From NCBI GenBank assembly GCA_963810095.1, contig CAWEMM010000008.1, positions 113,474 to 177,473 on the forward strand: a DNA stretch of 64,000 bases. The letters run 5' to 3'. Source of the stretch: an uncultured Chloroflexia bacterium (GTDB lineage Bacteria > Chloroflexota > Anaerolineae > CG2-30-64-16). Each line of letters starts with the position of its first letter. The first letter of the stretch is position 1. This document shows, piece after piece, positions 3-25,844 of the stretch. Both the position numbers and the translations under genes were made by a program. The notes beneath the pieces are model-generated. The model saw only the letters and a list, made by a program, of their open reading frames with translations, searched no databases and was not told the origin of the DNA.

Positions 3-770
3 CCTAACGGTCGCGCACCGGAAATCTTCAGGCTGCTGGCGAACGATTTACGTTGGCAGCTGATCGTCGCGCTTGCCCGATCGGACCTTAAGGTGCAGGA
101 ATTGGCCGCTCGGACGGACCGGCCACAAAACCTCGTCTCCTATCATCTCAAGGAGCTCCGCGCGGCGGAGCTGGTTGTCGAGCGGCGTAGCAGCGCAGAC
201 GCGCGCGACGTCTACTATAGTCTCGACCTCGGCCGGCTCCGCGACCGATTGCTCGAGAGTGGGCAAGTCCTCCATGCAGTTCTGGGAAGCTCCGGTCGGT
301 CATCACGGATAATCGCCGAACGGGAATTGCCCGTATCGGTCCTATTCTTATGCACCCGCAATAGTGCGCGCTCCCAGATGGCCGAAGCCCTACTACGGGC
401 GCGCGGTCCGGCGTCGCTGCACGTCTGCAGCGCAGGCAGTGAGCCGGCTGCTGTTCATCCGTTGGCAATCGAAGCGATGGCCGAGATGGGCATTGACCTG
501 CGCGGGCACGTGGCGAAGCACTTTGAGCAGCTCGTGGGGCAACACTTCGACTATGTGATCACGGTATGCGACCGCGTGCGCGAGGTCTGCCCCGTCTTTG
601 CGGACGAATCCGAAGCGATCCACTGGAGCTTGCCCGACCCTGCAGCCGTGACTGGCTCGCCGGCCGAGCGCTATAAGGCGTTCCGGGAGACCGCCGCGGA
701 GCTCACTACCCGCATTGATTTCCTATTGCCAGCCCTATTGAGTGACTATTCGAAAGGAAGAGACGCGTGA
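3..770 (+). CDS. ArsR-type HTH fused to LMW-PTP-type arsenate reductase domain (5' partial)
   Basis: Frame is open from position 3 (…IFRLLANDLRWQLI…QNLVSYHLKELR), an HTH; then P-loop CTRNSAR, TVCD…CP and HWSLPDP. Confidence 0.85.
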   Translation, partial: PNGRAPEIFRLLANDLRWQLIVALARSDLKVQELAARTDRPQNLVSYHLKELRAAELVVERRSSADARDVYYSLDLGRLRDRLLESGQVLHAVLGSSGRSSRIIAERELPVSVLFLCTRNSARSQMAEALLRARGPASLHVCSAGSEPAAVHPLAIEAMAEMGIDLRGHVAKHFEQLVGQHFDYVITVCDRVREVCPVFADESEAIHWSLPDPAAVTGSPAERYKAFRETAAELTTRIDFLLPALLSDYSKGRDA

Positions 771-1222
771 GCAAGGTGAACGTACTGTTCTTGTGCACCG
801 GCAACTCGGCGCGCAGCCAGATGGCGGAGGCATTCCTCCGCGCGTATGGCGGCGAGCAATTTGAGGCGTTCAGCGCAGGGCTGGATCCGAAAGACATCAG
901 CCCCTACACACGACAGGTGATGGCGGAGCGCGGCTACGACCTGGCCGGCCAGCGCTCCAAAAATGTCAGCGAATACCTGGCCAAGAAGCACTTCGGCTAC
1001 CTGATCACCGTGTGCGGTCAGGCTGAGCAGAACTGCCCGCGGGCGTTCATGGGCATGGGGCGCCGCGTGCATTGGGACCTGGAGGACCCGGCGGCATTCG
1101 TGGGGACGGATGAGCAGATACTCGAAAAGTACCGTCAGGTGCGCGACGAGGTCGAGGCACGAGTTCGTGGTTGGGTCGCCGAGACGCGACCGACACTGCA
1201 GGGAGTGAATCTGAATGGCTAA
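767..1222 (+). CDS. arsC: thioredoxin-type arsenate reductase ArsC (LMW-PTP fold)
   Basis: VLFLCTGNSARSQMAE, TVC…CP, HWDLEDP. Confidence 0.85.
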   Translation: MSKVNVLFLCTGNSARSQMAEAFLRAYGGEQFEAFSAGLDPKDISPYTRQVMAERGYDLAGQRSKNVSEYLAKKHFGYLITVCGQAEQNCPRAFMGMGRRVHWDLEDPAAFVGTDEQILEKYRQVRDEVEARVRGWVAETRPTLQGVNLNG

Positions 1223-1643
1223 GCGACGAGTGTTGTTTCTATGCACCGGCAACTCCTGCCGCAGCCAATTGGCCGAAGCGATCGTCAACGCGCGCCTGGG
1301 CGATGAGTGGGAGGCGTATAGTGCGGGTACGCAGCCAGCGGGCTATGTTCACCCGTTGGCCGTGAAGGTCTTACGGGAGAACGGTATCGAGCACGAAGGG
1401 CGCTCGAAGAGTGCCAACGAGTACCGCGACATGGCGTTCGACCTTGTCGTGACGGTCTGTGACGATGCCGCCGAGAACTGCCCGGTGTGGTTGGGCAAGG
1501 GGCGGCGGGTCCACCTCGGCTTTCCCGATCCCGCCAAGGCAACGGGCAGCGCGGACGAGGTGCTGGCCGTGTTCCGGCGCGTGAGAGACGATATTGCACT
1601 CCGGGTCACTGAGCTTCTGGAGGAGACAAAACTCGGGGCTTGA
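1215..1643 (+). CDS. arsC: thioredoxin-type arsenate reductase ArsC
   Basis: VLFLCTGNSCRSQLAE, TVCDDAAENCP, FPDP. Confidence 0.88.
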   Translation: MAKRRVLFLCTGNSCRSQLAEAIVNARLGDEWEAYSAGTQPAGYVHPLAVKVLRENGIEHEGRSKSANEYRDMAFDLVVTVCDDAAENCPVWLGKGRRVHLGFPDPAKATGSADEVLAVFRRVRDDIALRVTELLEETKLGA

Positions 1644-1674
1644 CAAATCGCGAACTATATCGTATAAATACGAT
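1640..1674 (+). promoter_or_regulatory. sigma70-type promoter with overlapping ArsR-type operator
   Basis: TTGACA(1640)-17-TATAAA(1663); perfect inverted repeat ATCGTAT-AA-ATACGAT at 1659-1674. Confidence 0.7.
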
Positions 1675-1710
1675 GTGAATTGCGAGAGCAGATAGGCGGG
1701 GTTGGACGAA

Positions 1711-2097
1711 ATGGACACGATCACATTGCAGGAACGACGTAACACCCAGGACGAAGAGCGGCTGGTGCAGATGTTGAAAGCGCTGGGCAATCCCATCCGC
1801 TTTCGGATCATGCAGACGCTGGCCGAGCGCAAGACGTGCATTACGCAGGAGATCGTCGACACCACGCCGCTCGCCCAGTCCACTGTCAGCCAGCATCTGA
1901 AAGTGCTACGCGAGGCTGGGCTGATCGACGGCGAGACCGAGGGGCCGGCGACCTGCTACTGCCTCAGCGAGTCGGGCATCCGGTGGCTTAAGGAACAGAT
2001 CGAAGGCTGGTTGCCAGGCTGCTGCACCCCGAGCACTGGCAGGGTGCGCGACTTCGCGCCGGTGGACATCAAGGCGGCGAGCGGCTGCTGCAGCTGA
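1711..2097 (+). CDS. arsR: ArsR/SmtB family metalloregulator
   Basis: KALGNPIRFRIM…LAQSTVSQHLKVLREAGLI; C-terminal CC pairs; start may instead be TTG 1702. Confidence 0.85.
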   Translation: MDTITLQERRNTQDEERLVQMLKALGNPIRFRIMQTLAERKTCITQEIVDTTPLAQSTVSQHLKVLREAGLIDGETEGPATCYCLSESGIRWLKEQIEGWLPGCCTPSTGRVRDFAPVDIKAASGCCS

Positions 2098-2108
2098 GCT
2101 ACTCCGGC

Positions 2109-2154
2109 TTGACGGTGCTATTTTTTTGAGGTCAATCATCGTAATTAGCCGATG
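2109..2154 (+). promoter_or_regulatory. putative promoter and second ArsR-type operator upstream of the methyltransferase
   Basis: TTGACG at 2109; CATCG-N8-CGATG at 2137-2154, same ATCG-N8-CGAT core as 1659-1674. Confidence 0.5.
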
Positions 2155-2183
2155 AAATCCAACCAAGATAGGGAGATCGCATC

Positions 2184-3692
2184 ATGACGACCATGAGCGT
2201 AACGGGCAAGGCCACTATGCCTCGGGCTTCAGCCGAGTACTTCGAACGGGTGGCGGGCGAGTGGGACAGCCTGCGCAGTGGCTACTTCGGGGAGGCCGTG
2301 CGAGACGCGGCGATTGCGCGGTCATACCTGCGGCCAGAGATGGTCGTGGCCGACATCGGCTCGGGCACCGGGTTCATGGCAGCAGGGCTCGCGCCACTGG
2401 TCGCCAAGGTCTACGCGGTCGATGGCTCGGAGGCGATGCTCGAGGTGGCGCGCGAGAAGCTGGCGAGCTTCGGTAATGTAGAGCTGCAACTGGCCGATGG
2501 CGCGACGCTGCCGTTTGACGACGCGGCGCTGGATGCGGTCTTCGCGAACATGTACCTGCACCACTGCCCCGATCCACAAGCAGCTATCACCGAGATGGTG
2601 CGGGTGCTCAAGCCCGGCGGCCGCCTGGTGATCACGGACATGGACCAGCATGAGCACACCTGGCTGCGCGACGAAATGGCGGACGTCTGGCTGGGCTTCG
2701 CGCGGCAGGACCTGCGAGCGTGGTTCCGGACGGCGGGATTAGTGAACATCATCGTCGACCGCACCGGCGAGACCTGCAGTTCAAAGTCGACGAGCTGTGC
2801 AGGGGAAGGCATGGCGGATATCAGCATCTTCGTTGCTACCGGCAGCCGGCGGGTGAGCGGTGCAAAGGACGCGGTGCAGGAGAATTACGGCGCGCTGGCG
2901 GTCAACGGGGGGTGCTGTGGCTCGACCTCATCGCAGAGCAGCTGCTGCTCGACGTCGGACAGCGGCTCGCCAGCGAGCGGCTCGCCAGCGAGCAATTGCT
3001 GTTCTCCCGCTTCGAACGCTATGGAACTGGTCGAAGCCGGAGACCCGGACCTGGTCCTGTGGGAGACGGGGTACACCGCCGAGCAGATCAGCCTGGTGCC
3101 CGCCGAGGCGGTGAATCTCTCGCTAGGGTGCGGCAATCCGACGGCGATGGCATCGTTGAAGCCGGGCGAGACGGTACTGGATATCGGGAGTGGCGCGGGG
3201 ATCGACGCCTTCTATGCAGCCAAGCGTGTTGGACCTGAAGGGCATGTGATTGGACTGGACATGACGCCGGCCATGATCGAGCGGGCGGAGCGATCCGCAG
3301 AGGAAGCGGGGCTGACGCAGGTCGAGTTTCGGCTCGGCCAGGCGGAAGAGATGCCGGTCGAGGATGGAACGGTTGACGTGATCCTGTCCAACTGCGTCAT
3401 CAACCTCGCTGAGGACAAAGGCCGGGTCTTTGAAGAGGCGCACCGGGTACTAAAGTCGGGCGGGCGGTTGAGCATCAGCGACATGGTCACCGCCGGGCCG
3501 CTGCCGATGAGCCTTCGGAGCGATCCTGAGATGTGGGCGGGGTGTATCAATGGCGCCCTGCCCGAACGGGAGTATCTGGACCTGGTGCGGCAGGCCGGGT
3601 TTGTCGATGTGGTTGGGACGCGGAGCTTGAGCGGGGGCGAGTTGGAGGGTATCGAGGTGTACAGCCTGGGGGTCTCGGGGAGGAAGGGATAA
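2184..3692 (+). CDS. arsM: double SAM-methyltransferase; C-terminal domain is arsenite methyltransferase (ArsM)-like
   Basis: Two DIGSGxG motifs; C-domain has LGCGNP, SNCVINL and WAGCINGA (ArsM cysteines); CC-rich linker. Confidence 0.75.
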   Translation: MTTMSVTGKATMPRASAEYFERVAGEWDSLRSGYFGEAVRDAAIARSYLRPEMVVADIGSGTGFMAAGLAPLVAKVYAVDGSEAMLEVAREKLASFGNVELQLADGATLPFDDAALDAVFANMYLHHCPDPQAAITEMVRVLKPGGRLVITDMDQHEHTWLRDEMADVWLGFARQDLRAWFRTAGLVNIIVDRTGETCSSKSTSCAGEGMADISIFVATGSRRVSGAKDAVQENYGALAVNGGCCGSTSSQSSCCSTSDSGSPASGSPASNCCSPASNAMELVEAGDPDLVLWETGYTAEQISLVPAEAVNLSLGCGNPTAMASLKPGETVLDIGSGAGIDAFYAAKRVGPEGHVIGLDMTPAMIERAERSAEEAGLTQVEFRLGQAEEMPVEDGTVDVILSNCVINLAEDKGRVFEEAHRVLKSGGRLSISDMVTAGPLPMSLRSDPEMWAGCINGALPEREYLDLVRQAGFVDVVGTRSLSGGELEGIEVYSLGVSGRKG

Positions 3693-4098: not shown

Positions 4099-4151
4099 CT
4101 AGATCAAGCACGGGGGCCAGTGCAGGTCTGACCAGGCGCACAACCGTATAA

Positions 4152-4198
4152 GGGGATGAGGCTCCCCGGGGTTATAGACCCAGAACGTCGCAAGACTG

Positions 4199-4209
<11 letters not shown>
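4152..4209 (+). ncRNA. fluoride riboswitch (crcB motif) #1
   Basis: GGGGATGAGGCTCCCC … GTCGCAAGAC TGATAGCCTCTAC; P1, pseudoknot GAGGC/GCCTC; upstream of eno…fluC. Confidence 0.93.
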
Positions 4210-5560
<1,351 letters not shown>

Positions 5561-6187
5561 GTGCCCATGACGCGCTTCGTCCTGGTTCGGCACGGTCAGA
5601 CGGAGTGGAACCGGGTCGAACGGTTCCGCGGACGGGCCGATGTGCCGTTGAACGACGCCGGGCTGGCGCAGGCGGAGGCGACCGGGCGGCGGGTGGCCGA
5701 GGAATGGCAGCCCGCCGCCGTGTACGCCAGTCCGCTTAGCCGGGCATACGTGACGGCGGAAGCGATTAGCGTACGCTGCGGCCTGCCGGTGGCGCCGTTG
5801 GCCGGCGTGATCGATATCGATTACGGGGAGTGGCAGGGACTGACGCCCGAGGAGGTCGCCGCCCGCTGGCCAGACCTGCTGCACGCCTGGTATACCGCGC
5901 CGCAGACGGTGCAGGTCCCCGGCGGTGAGTCGCTGGCGGGACTGCGCGAGCGGGCCATGCGGTCTCTTTGTGAGCTGGTGGACCGGCACCGTGACGAGAC
6001 AGTCGCGGTCGTGAGCCACACGGTGGTCAACCGGGTGATCCTGTTGGGCATCCTCGGGCTGGGCAATGAACGGTTTTGGCGGCTGCGGCAGGACAACTGC
6101 GCAATCAATGTGTTCGACGCGGACGCCAGCGATTTCACGCTGGTGACACTAAACGATACCAGCCATCTGCGCTGCGCTGAGAAATGA
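5561..6187 (+). CDS. histidine phosphatase / phosphoglycerate mutase family (GpmB/CobC-like)
   Basis: LVRHGQT.WN…RFRG, SPLSRA, GES, VVSH. Confidence 0.9.
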   Translation: MPMTRFVLVRHGQTEWNRVERFRGRADVPLNDAGLAQAEATGRRVAEEWQPAAVYASPLSRAYVTAEAISVRCGLPVAPLAGVIDIDYGEWQGLTPEEVAARWPDLLHAWYTAPQTVQVPGGESLAGLRERAMRSLCELVDRHRDETVAVVSHTVVNRVILLGILGLGNERFWRLRQDNCAINVFDADASDFTLVTLNDTSHLRCAEK

Positions 6188-6209: not shown

Positions 6210-6761
6210 GTGACCGTGAATAACTTATGGCTTGAGCTGCGCATGGGGCCGAAAGCGCCTGATATCGTATATGCCATCGTCGAGTCGCCCAAGGGCCAGC
6301 GGAACAAGACGGAGTATAACATCAACAGTGGTGCGCTCGTGTTGAGCCGCACGCTCGCCTCGTCGCTGCACTACCCGGGCGACTATGGGCTCATCCCGCA
6401 GACCTTCTTCGAAGATGGTGAGCCCATGGACATCCTGACCATGACCGGCGAGCCGACTTTCCCCGGCTGCGTCATCCAGGCGCGCCCCGTGGGCATTCTG
6501 CGACTGATGGACGCCGGCCATCACGACGACAAGGTGCTGGCGGTGGCTGCCACGGACCCACTCTTCGCCGAGTACCAGGCGCTGAAGGACATCCCCCCTC
6601 ACTTCCTGCGCGAGGTGCAGCACTTCTTCGAGACGTACAAAGACCTGGAGGGCGGCAAGCGCGCGCAGGCGATGGGGTGGGAGGACGCGGCGGCGGCCAA
6701 GGAGGCCATCCTGCGCGCCCACCAGGTGTTCTTGGAGCGTTTCAGTCTGAAGGGCCTGTAG
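6210..6761 (+). CDS. ppa: family I inorganic pyrophosphatase (variant active site)
   Basis: YPGDYGLIPQT, DGEPMD, D…DDK, FFETYKDLE. Confidence 0.92.
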   Translation: MTVNNLWLELRMGPKAPDIVYAIVESPKGQRNKTEYNINSGALVLSRTLASSLHYPGDYGLIPQTFFEDGEPMDILTMTGEPTFPGCVIQARPVGILRLMDAGHHDDKVLAVAATDPLFAEYQALKDIPPHFLREVQHFFETYKDLEGGKRAQAMGWEDAAAAKEAILRAHQVFLERFSLKGL

Positions 6762-6849
6762 GACAGCGGCATCGTAGGGCGCCTGAGAGACGAGCCTATG
6801 AGCCGCGAGCGCCTGGTGTGGAGGCGTGCAGCAATGCAGAGGGGAGTGC

Positions 6850-7224
6850 ATGACGAGGTTCCTGTTGATTGGCCTGGGCGGCATGGTGGGCGCGAATGTG
6901 CGCTACTGGCTGCAGCAATGGGCTGCCAACCGCTGGGGTGCGGCGTTTCCCTATGGGACGTTGATCATCAATGTGAGCGGGAGTTTCATCCTCGGTTTCT
7001 TCATCGTATTGGTCACCGACCGGCTCGCGGTCTCGCCCAACTGGCGTTACCTGATTGCGGTCGGGCTGTTAGGCGGCTACACGACCTTTTCGTCGTTCAC
7101 GGTCGAAACGCTTACGCTGGCCGGGAGCGGGCGCCTGCTGCCCGCGTTGTTGTATCTGGGCGGCAATGTGGGGCTTGGCCTCATCTTCGCCTATCTTGGC
7201 ATGGCACTGGCACGGGCGCTTTAG
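6850..7224 (+). CDS. crcB: fluoride channel FluC/CrcB
   Basis: GGMVGANVRY, PYGTLIINVSGSF, GLLGGYTTFSSF; 4 hydrophobic segments. Confidence 0.96.
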   Translation: MTRFLLIGLGGMVGANVRYWLQQWAANRWGAAFPYGTLIINVSGSFILGFFIVLVTDRLAVSPNWRYLIAVGLLGGYTTFSSFTVETLTLAGSGRLLPALLYLGGNVGLGLIFAYLGMALARAL

Positions 7225-7276
7225 GAGCGCCTGCGAGCGGAGCACGCGCTCCTGGCAGAGCGTTCGGAGGTGCGAG

Positions 7277-8553
7277 ATGGAAATCGTCGGGACTGCCAAG
7301 AAAGTGACGGTATACATCGGCGAGAGCGACCGCTGGGCCGGTAAGCCGTTGTACATGGCGATCTTGGAGGTGCTCAAGGCGGCCGACTGCGCGGGGGCAA
7401 CAGTAACGCGAGGCGTCGCAGGTTTCGGCGCGCACAGCCGCATCCGGACCGCAACCATCGTCGACCTGTCGCCCGACCTGCCCCTCATCGTGGAGTGGGT
7501 CGACGACCCGGGGCGGGTCGAGCGTGTCATGCCGAAGCTGATCGAGATGGTCGCCGAAGGCATGATCACCTGCTCGGAGGTCGAGGTGCATGACTTACGG
7601 GCATCGCGAGCTGCGCCGGCTGCGGGCCTCGGCGCCGGTGCATGACTTGATGAGTCGCGAGGTCCGTTCTGTGCGGCCAGACACGAGCGTGGCGGATGCC
7701 GTAGAGATGCTGATCGGCAAGGCCTATAAGGCGCTCCCCGTCGTCGACGATGAGCGCCGCGTGGTCGGGATCCTCACGGACGGCGACGTGCTGCGGCGAT
7801 TGGGACTCCCGGCTGCTGGCGTGCAGTCGGCACTGACGCGCGCGGAGCTCGGCCGGGAGCTCGAGGCGCTGCGCCACAGCGGGCAGACGGTCAAGGATAT
7901 CATGGTGAGCCCGGTGGTAACGACCACGGAGGATGCGCCAATCGCCCAGGCCGTCAAAGTGATGACACAGCGGGGCATCAAGCGGCTGCTGGTCGTGGAT
8001 CGGGACGGCCGGCTCATCGGCGTGGTCAGCCGGGTCGACGTGCTCCGTGCGTTAGCTCAGCCGGCCGTGGCGGAGGCCCCCCAAGCCGAGGTGCGGCCGG
8101 GGCACCACGTCCAGGTACGCGACGTGATGGTGACGGAAGTGCCAAAGGTGCACGTCGATGCTGGGCTCAACAAAGTCGTGGACCTGCTGGTCAGCTCGGC
8201 CGAGCGCCGCATCGTGGTGGTGGATACGGATGAACGGGTACTGGGCATCATCACGGACGGCGATCTGATCAAGCGCGCCAGCGGGACCGAACGCAGCGGG
8301 TTGCTGGGCGCCCTGAGCCGCCGGCTTAGCAGTGCAGAGGGAGTCAACCTTGCCGCTCGGACCGCGGGCGAGGTGATGACGGCTAACCCCGTCACGGTGA
8401 CACCCGAAACCCGCCTGTTGGATGCCCTGCAATTGCTCTTGCGCGCACAAGGTCAAGCGTTTGCCTGTCGTGGACGACACGGGGCGGCTCGTGGGTCTCG
8501 TCGGTCGGGGCGAGATACTGCAGGCGCTCGCTTCCGAGCTGCCTGAGGAGTGA
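7277..8553 (+). CDS. DUF190 (PII-like) domain plus tandem CBS pairs; frameshifts near 7590 and 8445
   Basis: VYIGESDRW…GATVTRGVAGFG…DLSPDLP; then four CBS repeats ending HKVKRLPVVD…GEILQAL. Confidence 0.8.
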
Positions 8554-8554
8554 C

Positions 8555-8998
8555 GTGCTCAACACGGCGCAGCGCGCGGCGATCACGATCGGCCTGCGCG
8601 CCTTCGAGATGCACTTGCACGAGATCGCGCGCTGGCTGCGAGGCGCACCGGATGCCGGCGTTCTGTTTTGGGAGCACCTTGATTTCAGCGACGAGGTGCG
8701 CATACAGGCCGAGGAGCAAGTTGCGGCTGCGCTTGCCCTGGTCGCGGAGCTGGCCCAGCGTTTTGAACTGGAACGGACCCCAATCGACCTGGGGGCGAAG
8801 ATCACGGGCATGATGAGCGTCGACTGGGCCGACCTGGTGGACCTGCAGGCGAGCAAACTGCGGCGCTACGGCGGGGTAGCGGCTGAATTGAGTGGTTTGC
8901 TGGACGCCGATGTCGAACGACTCGCGGACACGGCGAAGGAGCTGGCAAAGCTCAGAGGGGCTCCGAGCGGACACGGGGCGGCAGAAGTAGATGGCTGA
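8555..8998 (+). CDS. hypothetical helical protein
   Basis: 147-aa ORF tightly packed between neighbours in the operon. Confidence 0.65.
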   Translation: MLNTAQRAAITIGLRAFEMHLHEIARWLRGAPDAGVLFWEHLDFSDEVRIQAEEQVAAALALVAELAQRFELERTPIDLGAKITGMMSVDWADLVDLQASKLRRYGGVAAELSGLLDADVERLADTAKELAKLRGAPSGHGAAEVDG

Positions 8999-9671
8999 GC
9001 AGGACACGCTATTCCACGAAATCTTGGACGCGCTCAAGGCGGGTGGCTGCCCGATATGCCGGCTGGGACACCGTGCGCGCGACGCGCTACATCGACACGC
9101 TCAACTACGAGGGCGTCAACGATCCGGGCCTGCGCGAGAGCCTCCGCAAGTCGCGCGGGCTCTGCAACCGGCATGCGTGGGAATGGTCGCATGTGCGCGG
9201 CAGCCCGCTGGGTGTTGCCATCGTTTACCAGAACCTGGTCCGGGACCTGGCCGAGGTGGTCGCGAACGGCAAGGCTCGCTACCAGAGCAAGGCCATGGCC
9301 GTCGAGGAGTCGGGGGGCCGCTGGCTCCTGCGGCACGCTGTCCAGCCTGCGTGGCCGAAGACGATGCAGGCGACCGTTATGCGACGACGCTGCTAGAAGT
9401 ACCTCGAAGGCCGGAGATCGACGAGGTGTACGTCAGATCGGGCGGACTGTGTCTGCTACACTTACGGGTGGCCGTCAACTTAGCGGACGTCGGGCAGATC
9501 ACGAAACTGGCGAACTGGCAGGCGGCCGTGTATCGCGGGCTGGACGAGCAGCTCGGCGAGTTCATCCGCAAGCACGACTACCGGTTCGCGGGCGAGCCGA
9601 TGGAGGCAGAGAAAGACTCGTGGACGCGCGCCGTGGCGGCAATCGCGGGCCAGGAGGAAGACGTGCGTTAG
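8991..9671 (+). CDS. DUF6062-like protein with two CxxC…CxxH units; frameshifts near 9080 and 9325
   Basis: CPIC…GLCNRH and CPAC…GLCLLH…FIRKHDYRF assembled across two frames. Confidence 0.7.
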   Translation: MAEQDTLFHEILDALKAGGCPICRLGHRARDALHRHAQLRGRQRSGPAREPPQVARALQPACVGMVACARQPAGCCHRLPEPGPGPGRGGRERQGSLPEQGHGRRGVGGPLAPAARCPACVAEDDAGDRYATTLLEVPRRPEIDEVYVRSGGLCLLHLRVAVNLADVGQITKLANWQAAVYRGLDEQLGEFIRKHDYRFAGEPMEAEKDSWTRAVAAIAGQEEDVR

Positions 9672-10258: not shown

Positions 10259-10273
10259 GCGCCCAACTGAATA

Positions 10274-10332
10274 GGGATGAGGCTCCCGGCCGGGGCGAAC
10301 GCTCCGGTTGTCGCAAGACTGATAGCCTCTAC
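10274..10332 (+). ncRNA. fluoride riboswitch #2
   Basis: GGGATGAGGCTCCC … GTCGCAAGAC TGATAGCCTCTAC. Confidence 0.92.
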
Positions 10333-10364
10333 CAGTGCGCTACGGCACTGGTAGAGGCTTTTTT
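10324..10364 (+). terminator. riboswitch intrinsic terminator
   Basis: 15-bp stem AGCCTCTACCAGTGC / GCACTGGTAGAGGCT followed by a T tract. Confidence 0.88.
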
Positions 10365-10399
10365 GTTGTTTAGGGTTGGATCGGATCGTGAGGCGAGGC

Positions 10400-11626
10400 A
10401 TGAGCGACGATGTCGACGGAATGGCGGAGAAGGTTCCGGCGGACGCGTGGCTGAACCGCAACGTGGTCGGCATGGCGCTGGCCAGCTTCTTCAGCGACGC
10501 GGGGCACGAGATGGCGACCGCGGTGCTGCCATTGTTCCTGGTAGCAATCGGCGCACCGGCCGCAGCGCTCGGTGCGATCGAAGGCGTGGCGGACGCCGTC
10601 TCCTCCTTCGTGAAGCTGGGCTCAGGCTGGCTTAGCGACCAACTCGGGCGCCGCAAGCCGATCGCCGTTACGGGGTACGTGCTAACCGGCGTGACGACAG
10701 GATTGTTCGCGCTGACAACTACATGGCCGCAGGTGTTGGTGGTGCGAGCCGCTGGCTGGTTCGGCCGCGGCATGCGCGGTCCAGTGCGCGATGCGATGCT
10801 GGCAGATTCGGTTCCTGATGCGGCGCGCGGTCGGGCCTTCGGCTTCCACCGAGCCGGCGATACACTGGGCGCTATCGTCGGACCGTTGCTCGCCCTGCTC
10901 ATGCTGCGACTGTTGGGCGGGCGCGAGACGCCGGAAACGACCTACCGCCAGATCTTCTGGCTGACTCTCATCCCTGGTCTGCTGGCTGCACTCGCATTCG
11001 CAACCTTAGTGAAGGAACAGCGGCGGACGGGCAACGGCAAGTTCAACCTGTTCCATGCAATCGGACGGCTCCCGACGCCCTTTCGACGATTCCTCCTTGG
11101 GGTAGGGATATTCGGAGCAGGCGACTTCGCACACAGCTTGCTGACACTCCGCGCCGCGACCATGCTGGCGCCGTCGCTCGGCGTAAACCAAGCTGGCCAG
11201 GTCGCAATCGGCCTCTACGCAGTGCACAACATCGTCTACGCTGCGCTGTCTTACCCAATAGGCTCGCTCGGAGACCGCATCGGCAAGCGAGGCCTCCTCG
11301 CCTTTGGCTACAGCCTCGCGGGCGTAATGGCGCTCGGCTGGATCTTCGCCGTGCCCTCAGTCTGGTACCTCGGCGTGTTGTTTGCGCTCGGCGGGGCGTT
11401 CATCGCGGCCGAGGATACGCTCGAAGGCGCGCTGGCCGGAGATCTGCTGCCGGTTGACGTGCGCGGCACGGGCTACGGCGTTCTGGCCACCGTGAACGGC
11501 GCTGGGGACTTCCTGTCGAGCCTGCTCGTCGGCCTGTTGTGGTCGGCCGTGAGCCCTGCCGCCGGCTTTGCTTATGCAGGTGTGCTGGCTCTTATCGGGG
11601 CGACCATCGTGTTTCGAGTGCGATAG
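10400..11626 (+). CDS. MFS transporter
   Basis: GWLSDQLGRRK and GSLGDRIGKR motif A repeats; about 12 hydrophobic segments. Confidence 0.92.
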   Translation: MSDDVDGMAEKVPADAWLNRNVVGMALASFFSDAGHEMATAVLPLFLVAIGAPAAALGAIEGVADAVSSFVKLGSGWLSDQLGRRKPIAVTGYVLTGVTTGLFALTTTWPQVLVVRAAGWFGRGMRGPVRDAMLADSVPDAARGRAFGFHRAGDTLGAIVGPLLALLMLRLLGGRETPETTYRQIFWLTLIPGLLAALAFATLVKEQRRTGNGKFNLFHAIGRLPTPFRRFLLGVGIFGAGDFAHSLLTLRAATMLAPSLGVNQAGQVAIGLYAVHNIVYAALSYPIGSLGDRIGKRGLLAFGYSLAGVMALGWIFAVPSVWYLGVLFALGGAFIAAEDTLEGALAGDLLPVDVRGTGYGVLATVNGAGDFLSSLLVGLLWSAVSPAAGFAYAGVLALIGATIVFRVR

Positions 11627-11679: not shown

Positions 11680-13262
11680 ATGGCCGTCAGCGTGCCAGAG
11701 ACTCGGATCAGCACGTCCAAGACGGCGTTCTGTAGCGTCCTGTTTCTGCGACCCGAGGATAGGACCGAGAGCGAGACGCGCGAGGAGCCGGCCTGCTTCG
11801 GCGATCTGAACCTCGACCAGGTCGTCGATGCCGTGACAATCGGCAAGCAGGGCTATGACCTCAAACGCTTCTACTATACGCCCTTGCACGACGTGGACGC
11901 GATCCAGTACCGCCACGAGGTCATGCAGGACCTCGAACGCCGGACGCTGTTCGAGAAGATCGAGGAGTTCGCGCGCCGGATGCGGACCATGCGCGAGCAT
12001 CTCAAGCAGGCCGAGAAGCTGTATTACAAGCTGCAGAAGCAGCGCTGGTTCCTGGATGCGGTGAATACGTCTATTGCAGCGCCGTCCAGCCGCCTGGCCG
12101 AGGACCTGGCCGCGGAGAATCCGCAGTCGCGCGGGTTTGGAGCCCTGCGCGCCCACCTCGACGCGTACGTAGCCGGCGAACCTTTCCAGGTGCTCGCGGG
12201 CGAACTGCACGAGCTGCTCTCAGGCCTGGCCGGCGTGCGCTATGCGTTCGTGCTCAAGGGCCAGACGGTGAGCGTGCGGAAGTACGAGGAGGAGACCGAC
12301 TACAGCGCCGAAGTGCTGCGGACTTTCGAGCGGTTCAAGCAGGGCGCGGTCAAGGAGTACCTGGCCGAATTTCGCGAGCCAGTGGACATGAACCACGTCG
12401 AAGCACAGGTGCTCGAGTTGGTCGCCCGGCTCTACTCTGACCTCTTTGGTCGCATCGAGAGTTACTGCACCCGGCACGTCGATTTTATCGACGAGGTGCT
12501 TGGCGTCTTCGACCGCGAGGTGCAGTTCTATATCGGGTACATCGACTTCATGCGGTCGTTGCAGCGGCGGGGCTTGCGGTTCTGCTACCCGGTCGTGTCG
12601 GCTGACAGCAAGGCTGTATCCAGCCGTGAAGGGTTCGACGTGGCGCTTGCGCGCAAGCTGGCGGGCGAAGAAGCGAACGTGGTCTGCAACGACTTCAGCA
12701 TGCAGGGGGTGGAGCGGGTATTCGTGGTATCGGGGCCGAACCAGGGTGGGAAGACCACGTTTGCCGCGGGCTTTCGGCCAGCTGCACTACCTCGCCAGCA
12801 TCGGCTGTCCCGTGCCGGGCCGAGAAGCCCACCTCTACCTGTTCGATCAGCTCTTGACGCACTTCGAACAGGAGGAGAACCTCACTAACCTGCGCGGCAA
12901 ACTGGAAGACGAACTGGTGCGCATCCATGAAATCCTCCAAGCGGCGACGCCGCGCAGCATCGTGATCATGAACGAGATCTTCACGTCGACGACGCTGCAG
13001 GACGCGGTCTTCCTGGGCGAGCGGGTCATGCAGCGCATCCTCGACCTGGATCTCCTGTGCGTCTGCGTGACCTTCATCGACGAGCTGGCTGCGCTGAGCG
13101 ACAAGATCGTCAGCATGGTCAGCACCGTGACGCCGGAGAACCCGAGCATGCGGACCTACAAGATCGTGCGGCGGCGGGCCGACGGGCTCGCGTACGCGAT
13201 TTCGATCGCCGAAAAGCATCGCTTGACCTACGAAGCGTTGAAGGAGCGCCTCGCGACCGTGA
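11680..13262 (+). CDS. MutS-like ATPase A (domain V only, no mismatch-binding domain); frameshift near 12765
   Basis: FGDLNLDQ, Walker [14 protein letters not shown]…LRGKL, MNEIF, ADGLAYA. Confidence 0.8.
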
Positions 13263-14780
13263 AAGCCTTCCTGATGTATCCGCAGCGGGATTTCGACGTG
13301 AAGCAGGCGTTGCCGCCGAATGCAGAAGCCCTGGTGCAGGACCTCGAGCTCAGCACCTTGTTCGCCGCGATGGCGCACGGCGACAAGTTCCTGTTCGAGG
13401 TGGCCCGGGTTGCCGTTTTGTCCGGCGCGGACGCCGACGTGCGCACGATCCTGTATCGGCAGGGCGTGCTCAAAGACTGCCTGAACCATGCGGCGCTCAT
13501 TCGGCAGATCTACGACTTGGCTGTGGACACCATCGAACGCGAGAAGCATGTGTGGTGGGGCGCATTCGGGAGAATGCCGGACACAATACTGCACCGGTCG
13601 GTCGAAGTGCTTGAGCTATTCGTCGGCGTGCTCAAGACGTTGAGGCGGATCGCCGACGAGCATGTTTCAGGCTTCGAGTCGGAGGGCTTCAAGGCGTTCT
13701 TCGCCATGCTCCAGCGGGAGCTCGACGACGTGTTCTTTGCCGAGGTCCAGCAGCACGTGCGCAATCTCAAGTTTCGCGACGGCATCCTGGTCAGCGCGCA
13801 GCTCGGCCAGGGCAACCGGGGGGTGGACTACGTGCTGCGAAAGCCGAACCGCAAGCAAGGCAACTGGTTCCAGCAGGCATTGGGGCCGCGGCCGACCGCC
13901 TATTCCTTCCGTATCGCGGATCGGGACGACAACGGTGCGCGGGCCCTCTCCGAGTTGCGGGACCGGGGCGTCAACCTGGTGGCAAACGCGGCCGCCCAGT
14001 CATGCGACCACATCCTTTCGTTCCTCACGCTGCTGCGCACCGAGCTCGCCTTCTACGTGGGTTGTCTGAACCTGCACGACCGGCTACAGGAGAAAGCCAC
14101 GGCAACGTCCTTCCCGGTTCCCTTGCCGCCGACGGAGTGCCGGCACACGGCGCGCGGGCTGTACGACGTTTGCCTGGCACTCGTCGTCGACCAGCCGGTG
14201 GTGGATAACGACCTGGACGCTGACGGCAAGAACCTTGTCGTCATCACCGGCGCGAACCAGGGGGGCAAGTCTACCTTCCTGCGGGCCATTGGCCTGGCCC
14301 AGACGATGATGCAGTGCGGCATGTTCGTGCCGGCCGAGGCGCTGACAGCGAACGTCGCGGATCGCGTCTTCACGCACTATAAGCGCGAGGAAGATGAGAG
14401 CATGAAAAGCGGCAAACTCGACGAGGAGTTGGGCCGGATGAGCGAGATCGTGGACCACATGACCCCGGATTCCCTGCTGTTGCTAAACGAGTCGTTTGCC
14501 GCTACGAACGAGCGGGAGGGATCGGAGATCGCGAGGCAGATCGTCACCGCACTGCTGGAGCGCGGGATCAAGCTCTTCTACGTGACGCACCTATACACAT
14601 TCGCCCGCGCGATGTATGATAAGAATCTATCTCATGCCCTGTTCTTGCAGGCCGAACGGCGCGAGGACGGCGAGCGCACGTTCAAGCTGGTTGCCGGTAC
14701 GCCATCGCAAACGAGCTTCGGCCCGGACCTGTACGAGAAGGTTTTTGCACGGGACGGCTCGGTCGGCCGAGGTTTCGTAG
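13259..14780 (+). CDS. MutS-like ATPase B (3' boundary uncertain; reads in frame into the next gene)
   Basis: KAFLMY..RDFD start after [39 protein letters not shown]. Confidence 0.8.
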
Positions 14781-14797
14781 ACGCCGGAGTATCGCCC

Positions 14798-16486
14798 TTG
14801 GAAACCATTGTCACGGTCCTTCGGGACGGCAAGCCGACAAACATCGGAGAGGACGCGCTGCGCAAGGGAGACACCTTGCTCCTCCAGGCGGGCGAACTCG
14901 TCGCGGCCGATCTGAAGCTGGTCGGGGCCAGGGGCCTGGAAGTCGACGAATGGGACCTGACCGGCGAGATCGTGCCCGTTGCGAAGCGCGTCGACGGACA
15001 CGAGGACGTCTTCGTTTACCGCGGCAGCCGGGTGACACGCGGGAATGGCAGCGGCGTGGTCACGGCCGTCGGGGAAGCGACAGAGTACGCCCAGTGCGTG
15101 AAGCAGTCCTGGGAGCGCACGCGTTATCGCCGGCCGTCGGCTCCTCACCCGGGGCTCCTTCGTCGTGTTGGCCCTCCTGGCGCCGCCCTTTGCCATGGCC
15201 GCGGTGCGGCACGAGAACGGGATCTTGCTGGGGCTCCTCGCCGCCGCCTTGGCCGTCCTCGCTGTCGTTCTTGAGAACAGCGCGCTGTTCGACTATGCGG
15301 TGACCGGGAAGGAAGTCAGCCGGATCGAGCAACAGGGCATTCAGATGCGTGACGTTGGTGCACTTGAAGTGATGGAGCGCCTGAATGTCCTGTGCGTGGA
15401 CAAGACCGGCGTCCTGACGACCCGCGACCTGAAGGTGAAGGAGATCTACCTGGCAGATGGTCCCTGCGAGCTGGCGGTACTTTGGCACCAACGAGGAGCC
15501 GGCCACGCTGGTCCGCACCGGCTGCGCGCTCTGCAACGACGTAATGTATGCCGAGAAAGCGAGCCTGGCCGCGCCGATCGATCGGGCCCTCATCGCGTTC
15601 GCGCGGGCCAGCGGGACCGACATCGCGGACGCGCACCAGACCTATCACAGGGTGTACGACAAGCCGTTCGATTCCGAGGAGCGCTACATGGCCTGTGGCT
15701 TCGAATCTGGCGAGAAGACCGTGTTCTTTGCCAAGGGCGACCCGGACGTCGTGCTGAAAATGTGCGGCACGTACAGCACGCCCTCGGGCAGTCAGCAGAA
15801 GCTAGACTTGCCTTTCTGGATATCCACGCGAACTCATGCCGAATCGATCAGCAAGGCGGGCGACGTGGTCATGGCGCTGGCCTACGGCGTCGGGGGATCG
15901 GCGACACCTCCGCTGCACTACACGTTTCTCTGCCTGATCCAGCTCGAGAATCCGCTTCAGCCAAACGTGCCCGGCACGCTGCGCGAGCTCAGGGGGAGGG
16001 CATCCGTACTGTGATGCTGACCGGCGATAGGACAGAGACCGCGTCAAAATCGCGGTCGCGGCCGGCATTGCCTCGGACGAGAGGCTGTGTCTGACCGGCC
16101 GGCTGATGGCGCACATGGGCGCGTTTGATATCCGCGAGCAGGCAACCTTCATCCCCATCTTTGCGCGGCTCCTGCCATCACAAAAGGCGCTCATCGTCAG
16201 GCTATTGCAGCAGAAGAACAAGGTCGTGGCCATGGTGGGTGACGGGGCAAACGACACACTGGCGTTGAAGGCGGCGGACGTCGGCATGGCCTTTGGCAGC
16301 GACGCGTCGCCCATGGCGAAGCGGGTAGCCCCCATCCTCATCAACGACCTGGCCGATCTGGTTACGCTTGTTGAAGGCGGCAGGCGCATTCACGAGCGCC
16401 TGGGTGAACTGGCCATGTTCCGGGTCGCGCTGCTGATCGTGATGTTCCTGGGGCTGTATGGGTGGGTATATAGCTTGTTGAGATAG
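14798..16486 (+). CDS. shortened P-type ATPase (A, P and N domains, about 3 TM); several frameshifts
   Basis: LTGE (14960), DKTGVLT (15399), KGDPD, MLTGD, GDGAND motifs; possible TTG start after GGAG. Confidence 0.72.
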
Positions 16487-23662: not shown

Positions 23663-23699
23663 AAACAAAAAGCCTCTACGGAACCGGTCCCGTAGAGGC
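23663..23699 (-). terminator. riboswitch intrinsic terminator
   Basis: Minus strand GCCTCTACGG…CCGTAGAGGC then TTTTTGTTT. Confidence 0.85.
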
Positions 23700-23740
23700 C
23701 ATCAGTCGGCAGTCCGACGGTTGACAGCGAGCCTCATCGC
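23692..23740 (-). ncRNA. fluoride riboswitch #3
   Basis: Reverse complement GCGATGAGGCTCGC tgtcAACC GTCGG actg CCGAC TGATGGCCTCTAC, the compact canonical form. Confidence 0.92.
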
Positions 23741-23764
23741 ATGGCGACTGCGTCGCCGAGCAAC

Positions 23765-23815: not shown

Positions 23816-23831
23816 GGGACTAATCGAATAA

Positions 23832-23891
23832 GGGATGAGGCTCCCGGCCGGCGCATCGCGCACGGCCTGTCGCAGGACTGATAGCCTCTAC
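23832..23891 (+). ncRNA. fluoride riboswitch #4
   Basis: GGGATGAGGCTCCC … GTCGCAGGAC TGATAGCCTCTAC. Confidence 0.9.
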
Positions 23892-23923
23892 CGGCGCGTT
23901 GCCGCGTTGGTAGAGGCTTTTTT
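23883..23923 (+). terminator. riboswitch intrinsic terminator
   Basis: AGCCTCTACCGGCGCG / CGCGTTGGTAGAGGCT followed by a T tract. Confidence 0.85.
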
Positions 23924-23943
23924 GTTACGGTGTGGAGGTCAGT

Positions 23944-24952
23944 ATGACGGCCCTGGATCGATTCGCAGATGAAGTAAAAGACATGGCGAGTCTCGCAGAA
24001 CCCGTGCAAATCGCCATCGAAAAGGAGTTATTGCCCGGGGAGGTCGTGCGCCGGATCATCTACGCGCCGCCTCATGAGGGGGCGGCCCGCAGGCGCAGGG
24101 TGGGCGGGTGGCTTTCCTGGCGACCTTCCCCGGCGTGGGTCCTGGTGTTGAGTGACACCCGGCTGCTGCTAGCGACGATCGAAGCGGACGAGCCTGTCCC
24201 GACGGTAAGCGCGGCCCCCGTGGCCGACATGCTTCGGATCGAGCTCGGCGAGATCCTCTTATACGCCTGGTTGGAATGGTCGTGGGCCGCTGACGGCGAG
24301 CTACGACAGGAGCGGGTCTATTTCAACTCGGTGCGCGCAGATCTGTTCTCGAAGGTGGTGGAAACGGTTCGCGCGGATATCGTCGCGCAATCTGGTCTGC
24401 CGCTGGCGGGCCAGGAGCGCGACCTGGCCTCGTTCAAGAGTCTACCATTCAAGTTCGCGAACATCATTCCGCACTTTCTGCTCTTCCGCGGCGAGTATGC
24501 AGAAAGCGTCGTCTTTCAGCCGGCGATCTGGGGGCGGCACCTGGGCCTTCTGCCCGTACAAGCGCGCGCCAGTAACCGTTGCTGTCTTGACGCCTCACTA
24601 CCTGCTGTTCGTACAAGATGATCTGTCTCACCAGAAGGCAGCCTACGGAGTGATCGCCAGCTACTGTCCTCGCAATCGGGTGACAGCTCTCGAGCTCGAT
24701 CGCAAGGAGAACGACGTAGTGCTGAATGCGACGCTTCGGTGGCAAGAGGCCGAAGAGAAGCTGAGCTACCTCTTTGAAGCAGAGGCAGAGCCGAGGCTGC
24801 GGGCGTTGATTGCCACGCTGGAGGGATCGACGAGCGTGGTGAAGATGGCTGGTCCCGATGCGGGCGAGGAATCGAGCAACGGCAGAGCGGAGACGAACGC
24901 CGGGGAAGATGGCGCCGAGATCGAACGAAGAGGCCTTGGGAGGCCGCAATAG
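23944..24952 (+). CDS. hypothetical soluble protein (~335 aa); frameshift near 24565
   Basis: RBS GGAGG; ORFs 23932-24621 and 24497-24952 join into one coherent product. Confidence 0.7.
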
Positions 24953-25388: not shown

Positions 25389-25844
25389 ATGATTACCCCG
25401 CGAGTGCTTTTCGTGTGTACGACGAATTCGGTGCGCAGCCAGATGGCCGAGGCGCTCTTGCGCAAGCATGCCGCTGGCAGGTTTGAGGCCTACAGTGCGG
25501 GCATCGAGCCGGGCAAGGTGAACCCCCTGACCGTGCGCGTGCTCAACGAGGTGGGCATCGATCCGTCGCTACAGTGGGCGAAACCCGTCGAGCTCTTTCG
25601 CGGCAAGATGCATGTCGACTACGTGATCACCTTGTGCAACAAGGCGGAACAACGCTGCCCTACTTTTCCGGCTGCGACCAGCCGGCACCACTGGTCTTTC
25701 GACGATCCGGCTGCGGGCGGCGGTTCGGAGGATGAGAAGCTAGCACGGTTTCGCAAGGTGCGCGACGAGATTGAAAAACAGATCCTGACCTGGATCGCCG
25801 AACTGAACGCGGAGCGAAATGGCGCCACGCTCAAGGCCAGCTGA
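25389..25844 (+). CDS. arsC: arsenate reductase ArsC (LMW-PTP fold)
   Basis: VLFVCTTNSVRSQMAE, TLC…CP, HWSFDDP; RBS AAGGAG. Confidence 0.85.
   Translation: MITPRVLFVCTTNSVRSQMAEALLRKHAAGRFEAYSAGIEPGKVNPLTVRVLNEVGIDPSLQWAKPVELFRGKMHVDYVITLCNKAEQRCPTFPAATSRHHWSFDDPAAGGGSEDEKLARFRKVRDEIEKQILTWIAELNAERNGATLKAS

Follow-up and report, generated by a model that had tools for sequence, protein, structure and literature searches.

We analysed a 64,000-nt stretch of contig CAWEMM010000008.1 from an uncultured Chloroflexia bacterium (assembly GCA_963810095.1), hereafter the window, and found that it encodes, at 6210-6761 on the plus strand, an accessory family I inorganic pyrophosphatase (PPase) in which a conserved Glu replaces a catalytic Asp. 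The gene lies in a riboswitch-type fluoride operon, a canonical paralogue is present elsewhere in the genome, and the substitution is found again in riboswitch-linked paralogues from three phyla. From these sequences we infer induction by fluoride, retained hydrolysis of pyrophosphate (PPi), and a lower affinity for fluoride brought about by the Glu together with second-site changes.

The open reading frame (ORF) at 6210-6761 gives a product of 183 aa, which matches PF00719 (2.3e-50; 170.8 bits against a cut-off of 23.5) over profile positions 1-150 of 153 and belongs to family I, in agreement with its PDB relatives and its identity with the paralogue. The 63 distinct PDB sequences matched are all named inorganic pyrophosphatase or diphosphatase, or have no function in their names; the best matches are family I PPases from archaea (1UDE of Pyrococcus horikoshii at E 7e-54), and these show e-d-g-D-p at the altered site. 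The translation bore out the D-G-E-P-M-D of the original prediction, at residues 69-74, with the GAG codon at 6420-6422 (plus strand, residue 71) where D-G-D-P-x-D has its second Asp, equivalent to yeast D117. The signature D-[SGDN]-D-P-x-D is thus broken at its second Asp, and 13 of the roughly 14 conserved active-site residues of family I are kept. Intact positions are E25, K33, E35, R47, Y55, Y59, D69, D74, D101, D106, K108, Y143 and K144; K-T-E at 33-35 and S-R at 46-47 stand for the usual KYE and DR, and the homologue alignment agreed with the earlier reading of both, and of the other ligands as intact. Local alignments with yeast PPase chains pair query residues 67-155 with chain residues 113-203, so that residue 71 equals yeast 117. 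The top-scoring yeast chain is PDB 117e, reportedly the D117E variant, and the E. coli equivalents are presumably D67, Y30, D42 and Y51, at a constant offset of 4. Since the homologues begin with MNNLW, the true start is probably GTG 6216, which would turn E71 into E69. The original prediction had also assigned to the second Asp the positioning of the nucleophilic water; this role of Asp117 is backed by passages of a review, whereas the residue number given for the Glu probably needs the correction just mentioned. The canonical paralogue, on contig C11, reads DGDPLD, KYE and DR and is 69% identical to the window PPase. The ORFs flanking this paralogue (L001, G000:C11) resemble, by eye, BMC shell and EutN-like proteins.

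In an alignment of 122 rows (the window ORF, the paralogue of its own genome and the best 120 homologues), position 71 is E in seven, namely the window PPase and its six nearest homologues (P0001-P0006, 71-93% identical to it), and D in 115. Exactly these seven rows carry T, M or L in place of Y34 and N, K or S in place of D46, the remaining exceptions being one row with D46Y and seven with F or S at position 34. When 37 genomes of the window's taxonomic order were searched, 28 of the 29 fetched non-self loci read DGDPLD, five further PPase rows lying outside the fetched set; only G022, a sister genome of the same genus, read DGEPMD, in a copy 86% identical to the window PPase. When the window PPase is compared with that of G022 and with those of the metagenome relatives L210, L211 and L212, the ratio of nonsynonymous to synonymous substitution (dN/dS) is 0.04-0.19 at a clade divergence of dS about 0.7-2; three of these five genes encode the Glu by GAG and the other two by GAA. 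The Asp-to-Glu change is a conserved clade signature under purifying selection, although such selection would argue just for some protein function. Confirmation of the codon in reads, called for in the original prediction, came from a 242-nt Logan contig of run X1, which spans 6383-6624 with no differences and may derive from the source sample; the Logan contigs from the reads are short and leave parts of the PPase gene uncovered. A base-call error at GAG is ruled out by this contig and by the Glu of G022, L210, L211 and L212, encoded by GAG or GAA. One further metagenome DGEP copy (L214, 2950-3341) is frameshifted after about 54 residues.

Upstream of the operon, a variant fluoride riboswitch aptamer was found at 4143-4215 on the plus strand (RF01734, 26.7 bits, E 1.7e-4; 47.9 bits with model R1), aptamers having been detected in E-value mode or with the purpose-built model R1. 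Its match spans model positions 1-64 and includes P1 (4152-4167), a lineage-specific inserted hairpin of 13 nt (4169-4181), P3 (4187-4196), and a pseudoknot that joins the P1 loop to the 3' tail. The pseudoknot reads GAGGCU/AGCCUC against a consensus of GGAGU/ACUCC, the pairing being kept by paired changes. A terminator hairpin with a U-run follows at 4198-4251 on the same strand (hairpin 4198-4243), with a predicted fold of -45.5 kcal/mol (z -3.3; none of 200 shuffles as stable), and its 5' arm is also the 3' strand of the aptamer's pseudoknot, an overlap that an ON switch should show, so that terminator and aptamer would compete ahead of the downstream crcB. From this arrangement we infer that the riboswitch-like element switches in response to fluoride.

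The genes behind this aptamer are co-directional and tightly spaced on the plus strand. They encode an enolase paralogue (4247-5560; Enolase_N and Enolase_C), a histidine-phosphatase or phosphoglycerate-mutase-like (PGM-like) protein (5561-6187; PF00300, 1.2e-61), the PPase, a CrcB/Fluc fluoride channel (6826-7224, likely start ATG 6850; PF02537, 2.4e-28), a DUF190 protein (7166-7645; PF02641, 3.1e-35, matching from ORF residue 45), a protein of four CBS domains (7590-8546; PF00571, 3.4e-49, in four stretches), an ORF without family (8555-8998) and a DUF6062 protein (8991-9671). The PPase gene is thus two genes downstream of the aptamer and terminator and immediately upstream of crcB, and just one terminator-like site, a weak one within crcB at 7127-7145, was found on the plus strand between 4247 and 9671. 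The genome holds a second, better-scoring enolase copy on contig C2 and a second CrcB elsewhere; the SGASTG loop of the window enolase, inspected by eye, is canonical.

Relatives of the window clade retain a fluoride context, with exceptions. In L210 (P0004), a MutS_V gene comes first, then a variant aptamer scoring 25.6 bits and placed 41 nt ahead of the PPase, and after the PPase CrcB and DUF190; the aptamers of L210 and L215 are orthologous to those of the window. L215, in which an N-terminal PPase fragment stands at the contig end, shows the same aptamer variant as the window (40.4 bits), followed by a 147-aa ORF, four MutS_V genes and the PPase start. L212 (P0006), which reads DEEP, has the order PGM-like, PPase, CBS. 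In L211 (P0005), two MutS_V genes, a dynamin-like GTPase and a 497-aa PPase-like protein precede the PPase, which is followed by homologues of the ORF without family and of the DUF6062 protein of the window and, further on, by a CBS gene. The 497-aa protein (7605-9098), just upstream of the DGEP PPase, has a weak PPase domain. The G022 locus (L043) carries at about 10290-10395 a near-perfect inverted repeat with arms of about 27 nt, which is not a fluoride aptamer, between the DGEP PPase and a divergent modA.

Glu-type PPases also occur well beyond this clade. A scan of one genome per species with the pattern YG.[ILVMF]..T...DGEP.D returned at least 120 stretches, and the 120 matches listed comprise 82 full-length PPases, 33 members of a mini PPase-like family and five chance matches. 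At the Rfam gathering level, an aptamer lies directly upstream of the PPase operon in four of 18 loci tested (L052, L095, L162 and L163); model R1, run over the 82 full-length DGEP PPases, added L100 (a decayed aptamer, 36.5 bits) and L070 (a clear one, 33 bits), with a doubtful match of 20 bits at L083. CrcB falls within the 8-kb block of two of the 120 matches listed, in both directly downstream of a PPase that shares S46 with the window PPase; the search used jackhmmer with one seed on 8-kb blocks, and a CrcB just beyond a block would escape it. The lineages with a Glu-type PPase directly behind an aptamer thus number at least four: one in Chloroflexota (the window clade), two in Acidobacteriota, and one represented by the Actinomycetota metagenome-assembled genome (MAG) of L070, where the order is aptamer, MutS_V, 506-aa ORF, aptamer, PPase, NUDIX, IS66, aptamer, NADHdh. 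In five Acidobacteria genomes, with 15 of their 17 PPase rows retrieved, aptamers stand before five of six DGEP copies, one of six DGDP copies (L168) and none of three degenerate copies. A canonical Asp copy accompanied the Glu copy in all 12 genomes checked (G000, G022, G037-G041 and G192-G196), which fits a specialised back-up enzyme.

A tree of 104 rows built by a quick method requires at least seven state changes for Glu. The window clade is nested among canonical Chloroflexota PPases, and Acidobacteria hold two separate Glu clades. One of these, an Acidobacteriaceae clade with Y55F, lies within a clade of riboswitch-linked paralogues that otherwise reads DGDP (L179, L180) or DEDP (L181), which places regulation first and the change in the active site later. 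On the tree, D46 appears to have been lost in about five Glu lineages, as compared with a single Asp-type row with an otherwise canonical site, which hints that positions 46 and 71 are coupled. Other loop variants were seen: the riboswitch-adjacent PPase of L181 (G087:C31) reads D-E-D-P, and L182 and L183 of G058 read D-D-D-P, L182 being riboswitch-adjacent and also carrying Y59C. L183 (G058:C33) was not counted as riboswitch-linked, an aptamer lying 8.8 kb upstream on the same strand.

The strength of the association between Glu and fluoride riboswitches was assessed in a comparative survey of about 450 genomes, which yielded four motif-blind cases. The samples included six genomes flagged as unpublished (G043, G066, G220, G243, G378 and G485), which enter the tallies only and supply no named locus. 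In the Acidobacteriaceae-family sample of 151 genomes, where 150 of 176 riboswitch matches were listed and adjacency was matched by eye, RF01734 is present in 119 genomes and at least four of 114 non-seed PPase rows are riboswitch-adjacent; the 15 non-adjacent copies fetched uniformly read DGDP, and the locus of L183, a DDDP copy, holds no aptamer. No riboswitch-adjacent PPase was found among 67 rows from Acidobacteriota (150 genomes and the seed genome) or 71 rows from Chloroflexota (150 genomes and the window's own). Over the three motif-blind samples, the base rate is therefore at least four of 252 family I PPase rows. Four or five of some 7-12 Glu lineages are riboswitch-linked, far above this rate. 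However, Glu copies are always extra paralogues, and extra paralogues in the same samples are riboswitch-linked in about four of 30 cases; once this null is applied, the enrichment is no longer significant (roughly p = 0.06, a hand calculation). The expectation that DGEP homologues would be enriched behind fluoride riboswitches is thus partly supported: it holds, in at least four lineages, against the base rate and fails against the extra-paralogue null, and many such homologues are without fluoride context.

The loss of significance is one of several observations that weigh against our reading of the Glu as an adaptation to fluoride. Glu occurs in none of the four motif-blind riboswitch-adjacent PPases listed, of which L179 and L180 read DGDP, L181 DEDP and L182 DDDP, and canonical DGDP family I PPases are riboswitch-linked as well (L168, L179 and L180). 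The independent-pairs tests, which set Glu and an altered loop each against the riboswitch and Glu also against D46 loss, had no power (4-7 pairs, p about 1). Among the matches listed, CrcB is in the block of only two of the 82 full-length DGEP PPases and an aptamer directly upstream of six, with a doubtful seventh, and most, chiefly actinobacterial, have no fluoride genes around them. RF01734 had no match in the five actinobacterial genomes tested; since these genomes lack any match at all, that test is uninformative. Within the window clade itself, L211 shows no aptamer in 19 kb, and the DGEP copy of G022 has no crcB, eno, pgm or aptamer nearby, its neighbours being GNAT and modABC. The aptamer at 4143-4215 stays below the RF01734 gathering score of 34 in the 3.8-kb search, and Rfam at gathering level reported no match in the whole window.

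The mechanism that we favor is as follows. Fluoride would bind the riboswitch at 4143-4215, the terminator would not form, and the operon would be transcribed into a single transcript carrying spare copies of enolase and PPase, both fluoride-sensitive enzymes, together with the PGM-like enzyme, CrcB, DUF190 and the CBS protein. In the housekeeping enzyme, the Asp and two metal ions would hold the nucleophilic water, which is the position that fluoride occupies on inhibition. Glu, with Y34T and D46S, would reshape this site so that fluoride binds more weakly, at some cost in catalytic rate, and PPi removal would continue through the accessory PPase while the canonical enzyme is blocked. As a whole, this explanation of a fluoride-induced accessory PPase with lower fluoride sensitivity has, in our judgment, about an even chance of being right, and fluoride tolerance of the Glu-type PPase, taken on its own, is plausible to the same middling degree. 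A broader proposal, which we put forward tentatively and regard as somewhat improbable, is that family I PPases have repeatedly evolved fluoride insensitivity by remodelling the D-G-D-P loop, in fluoride-riboswitch paralogues belonging to an island shared across phyla. The forms seen are DGEP, DEDP and DDDP, accompanied by further changes at the equivalents of E. coli D42, Y30 or Y51, and they may have arisen in paralogues already recruited by riboswitches and travelling with CrcB, MutS_V-type ATPases and dynamin-like GTPases.

Genes for PPase and enolase are known members of fluoride riboswitch regulons, and the usual view is that more of an inhibited enzyme is made. If Glu-type PPases resist fluoride, they would show how a family I active site can exclude fluoride yet activate water, and would explain their coexistence with a canonical copy; a small, Mg-dependent, fluoride-tolerant PPase would also be of use in strains engineered for the synthesis or degradation of organofluorine compounds. 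If they do not, the window operon is merely another member of a known operon type.

One alternative is that the window PPase is a spare copy only, which raises dosage under fluoride stress, the Asp-to-Glu change with Y34T and D46S being tolerated drift in a relaxed duplicate. The published account of such operons describes extra copies of inhibited enzymes, and yeast is reported to tolerate more fluoride when nothing but a fluoride-sensitive family I PPase is overexpressed; the canonical DGDP PPases behind riboswitches (L168, L179 and L180) and the non-significant association of Glu with riboswitches under the extra-paralogue null are in accordance with this. Drift fits poorly, however, with a Glu that has stayed fixed in its clade at dS of about 0.7-2 under dN/dS of 0.04-0.19, at a position where Asp is invariant in all 115 rows outside the clade. 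Nor does it readily account for at least seven independent changes of the same residue on the tree, repeatedly in riboswitch-linked paralogues, or for the loss of D46 in about five Glu lineages as compared with one Asp-type row with an otherwise canonical site. We consider a mere spare copy unlikely, though at a level that still deserves attention.

A change of function, to another metal (Mn, Co), to another phosphoanhydride or a fluorophosphate substrate, or to a partnership with MutS_V, dynamin-like, NUDIX or AAA proteins, would explain why the Glu type was never the sole copy in the 12 genomes checked and why MutS_V paralogues, dynamin-like GTPases, AAA ATPases and NUDIX recur beside it in three phyla. 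It could also accommodate the large actinobacterial Glu clades in unrelated neighbourhoods, with E35V in Kitasatospora and changes at D101, D106 and K108 in Rubrobacter, as well as the separate mini PPase-like family, which is DGEP in 33 of the 33 matches listed. In the window clade, however, all other catalytic residues are kept, the window PPase is flanked by glycolytic paralogues and crcB rather than by NTPases, and reviews treat PPase itself as a fluoride target; we regard this alternative as improbable. An artefact, whether of sequencing or assembly or through decay into a pseudogene, could be suspected from the draft state of the genome (88.5% complete, 4.8% contamination) and from the frameshift in the relative L214, but the open frame, the purifying selection, the same residue in independent assemblies and the agreeing read-derived contig already refute it as far as the data go, and we give it hardly any credence.

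Model R1 found exactly four aptamers of this variant in the whole genome, all of them within the window. Besides that of the PPase operon, an aptamer at about 10265-10338 on the plus strand precedes an MFS transporter (10376-11626); one at 23686-23750 on the minus strand (30.6 bits) precedes an operon of MoxR-type AAA_3, DUF58 and membrane-protein genes running from 23606 down to 20120; and one at about 23823-23897 on the plus strand precedes a family-less ORF (23932-24621). Each of the three has its own terminator, and the last two form a divergent pair. To our knowledge, MoxR and DUF58 are outside the gene classes linked to fluoride. An arsenic-type cluster adjoins the fluoride operon (93-3692 and 25389-25844), with an ArsR-like regulator, four LMWPc (arsenate-reductase-like) genes and a tandem double methyltransferase (2184-3692), and the region looks like a toxic-ion resistance island. 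At 12446-16486, a 942-aa ORF with two MutS_V stretches and a piece of an E1-E2 ATPase is followed by Cation_ATPase and Hydrolase fragments; frameshifts may have split a P-type ATPase here, or ORF calling may have produced an artefact.

Several further families were noticed in the survey. A gene set of two to four tandem MutS_V genes, a dynamin-like GTPase, AAA_16/ATPase_2 and sometimes NUDIX recurs with the Glu-type PPase in three phyla, along with an NADHdh-type membrane subunit behind its own aptamer; this riboswitch-controlled set was seen at L162, L100, L163, L052 and L095 (Acidobacteriota), at L210, L211 and L215 (Chloroflexota metagenomes), and at L070. The mini PPase-like family (33 loci listed, e.g., L046, L104, L106, L114 and L127) consists of proteins typically about 115-170 aa in length, several frames being longer, that share the motif IDRPLGSxHP...YP.NYGY.PGT...DGEP.D; their match to PF00719 is limited to its middle part (41-45 bits, profile positions 30-115), and they come from Rhodothermales/Salinibacter, Clostridia, Dehalococcoidia, Anaerolineae and other groups. 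DGEP looks to be the normal state of this family (33 of 33 matches listed). The degenerate PPase-like paralogues of Acidobacteria (L175, L177 and L178) show D101Q, D106N, K108R/H, Y55F and Y59F. DGEP paralogues carry E35V in Kitasatospora (e.g., L088 and L116), and D101E/S/T, D106E and K108T/N in Rubrobacteraceae (e.g., L091 and L151); judging from these residues, both may be other than ordinary PPases.

An operon of riboswitch-driven eno, pgm, PPase and crcB is of a type already known. In Enterobacter cloacae FRM, a riboswitch-ppaC-uspA-eno-gpmA-crcB operon is needed for high fluoride resistance, and its authors regard the enzymes as extra copies that supplement inhibited targets (Liu et al. 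2017, PMC5533749). The window likewise places PPase, enolase, phosphoglycerate mutase and crcB co-directionally behind a riboswitch and in addition to housekeeping genes. However, the FRM PPase is a Mn-dependent family II enzyme (ppaC), whereas that of the window belongs to family I, not family II, and has an altered catalytic residue; the window operon also differs in gene order, lacks UspA, adds DUF190, CBS and DUF6062 genes, and has a variant aptamer with an inserted hairpin. One review names PPase as a gene found especially often with fluoride riboswitches and notes less fluoride-sensitive homologues of it, and a second review has the nucleophilic water activated by Asp117 and two metal ions. 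The family II PPase of Streptococcus mutans is described in the literature as insensitive to fluoride. We found no natural Asp-to-Glu family I PPase of a fluoride regulon in the literature searched, supplements being outside its scope, and nothing relevant on E. coli D42/D67 mutants; as far as these searches show, the natural Glu variant and its recurrence are undescribed.

A laboratory counterpart is engineered yeast D117E, which shares the substitution and the aligned position with the window PPase (query 71, chain 117). Among yeast variants, D117E reportedly affected fluoride binding the most (Pohjanjoki, 2001), and the D117E structure was reportedly described by Tuominen in 1998 (PDB 117E). 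Yeast D117E is, however, a laboratory mutant of a eukaryotic enzyme, whereas the window change is natural and conserved, is accompanied by changes at positions 34 and 46, and belongs to a fluoride regulon. Canonical family I PPases (1UDE, Thermococcus 3I98 and the C11 paralogue) are of the same length as the window PPase and share 13 of the 14 catalytic residues with it, the solved ones matching it at E 7e-54 to 2.4e-51; they read DGDP, KYE and DR and are housekeeping enzymes, in contrast to the DGEP, KTE and SR of the riboswitch-linked window PPase. A natural parallel is the Acidobacteriaceae paralogue clade (L162, L163, L174, L168, L179, L180 and L181), which, like the window PPase, consists of extra family I copies; they stand directly behind RF01734 aptamers, and several carry Glu at the corresponding position. 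It has an independent origin on the tree, carries Y55F as its second-site change instead of Y34T/D46S, includes some DGDP or DEDP members, and has MutS_V, dynamin-like and AAA neighbours where the window has eno and pgm.

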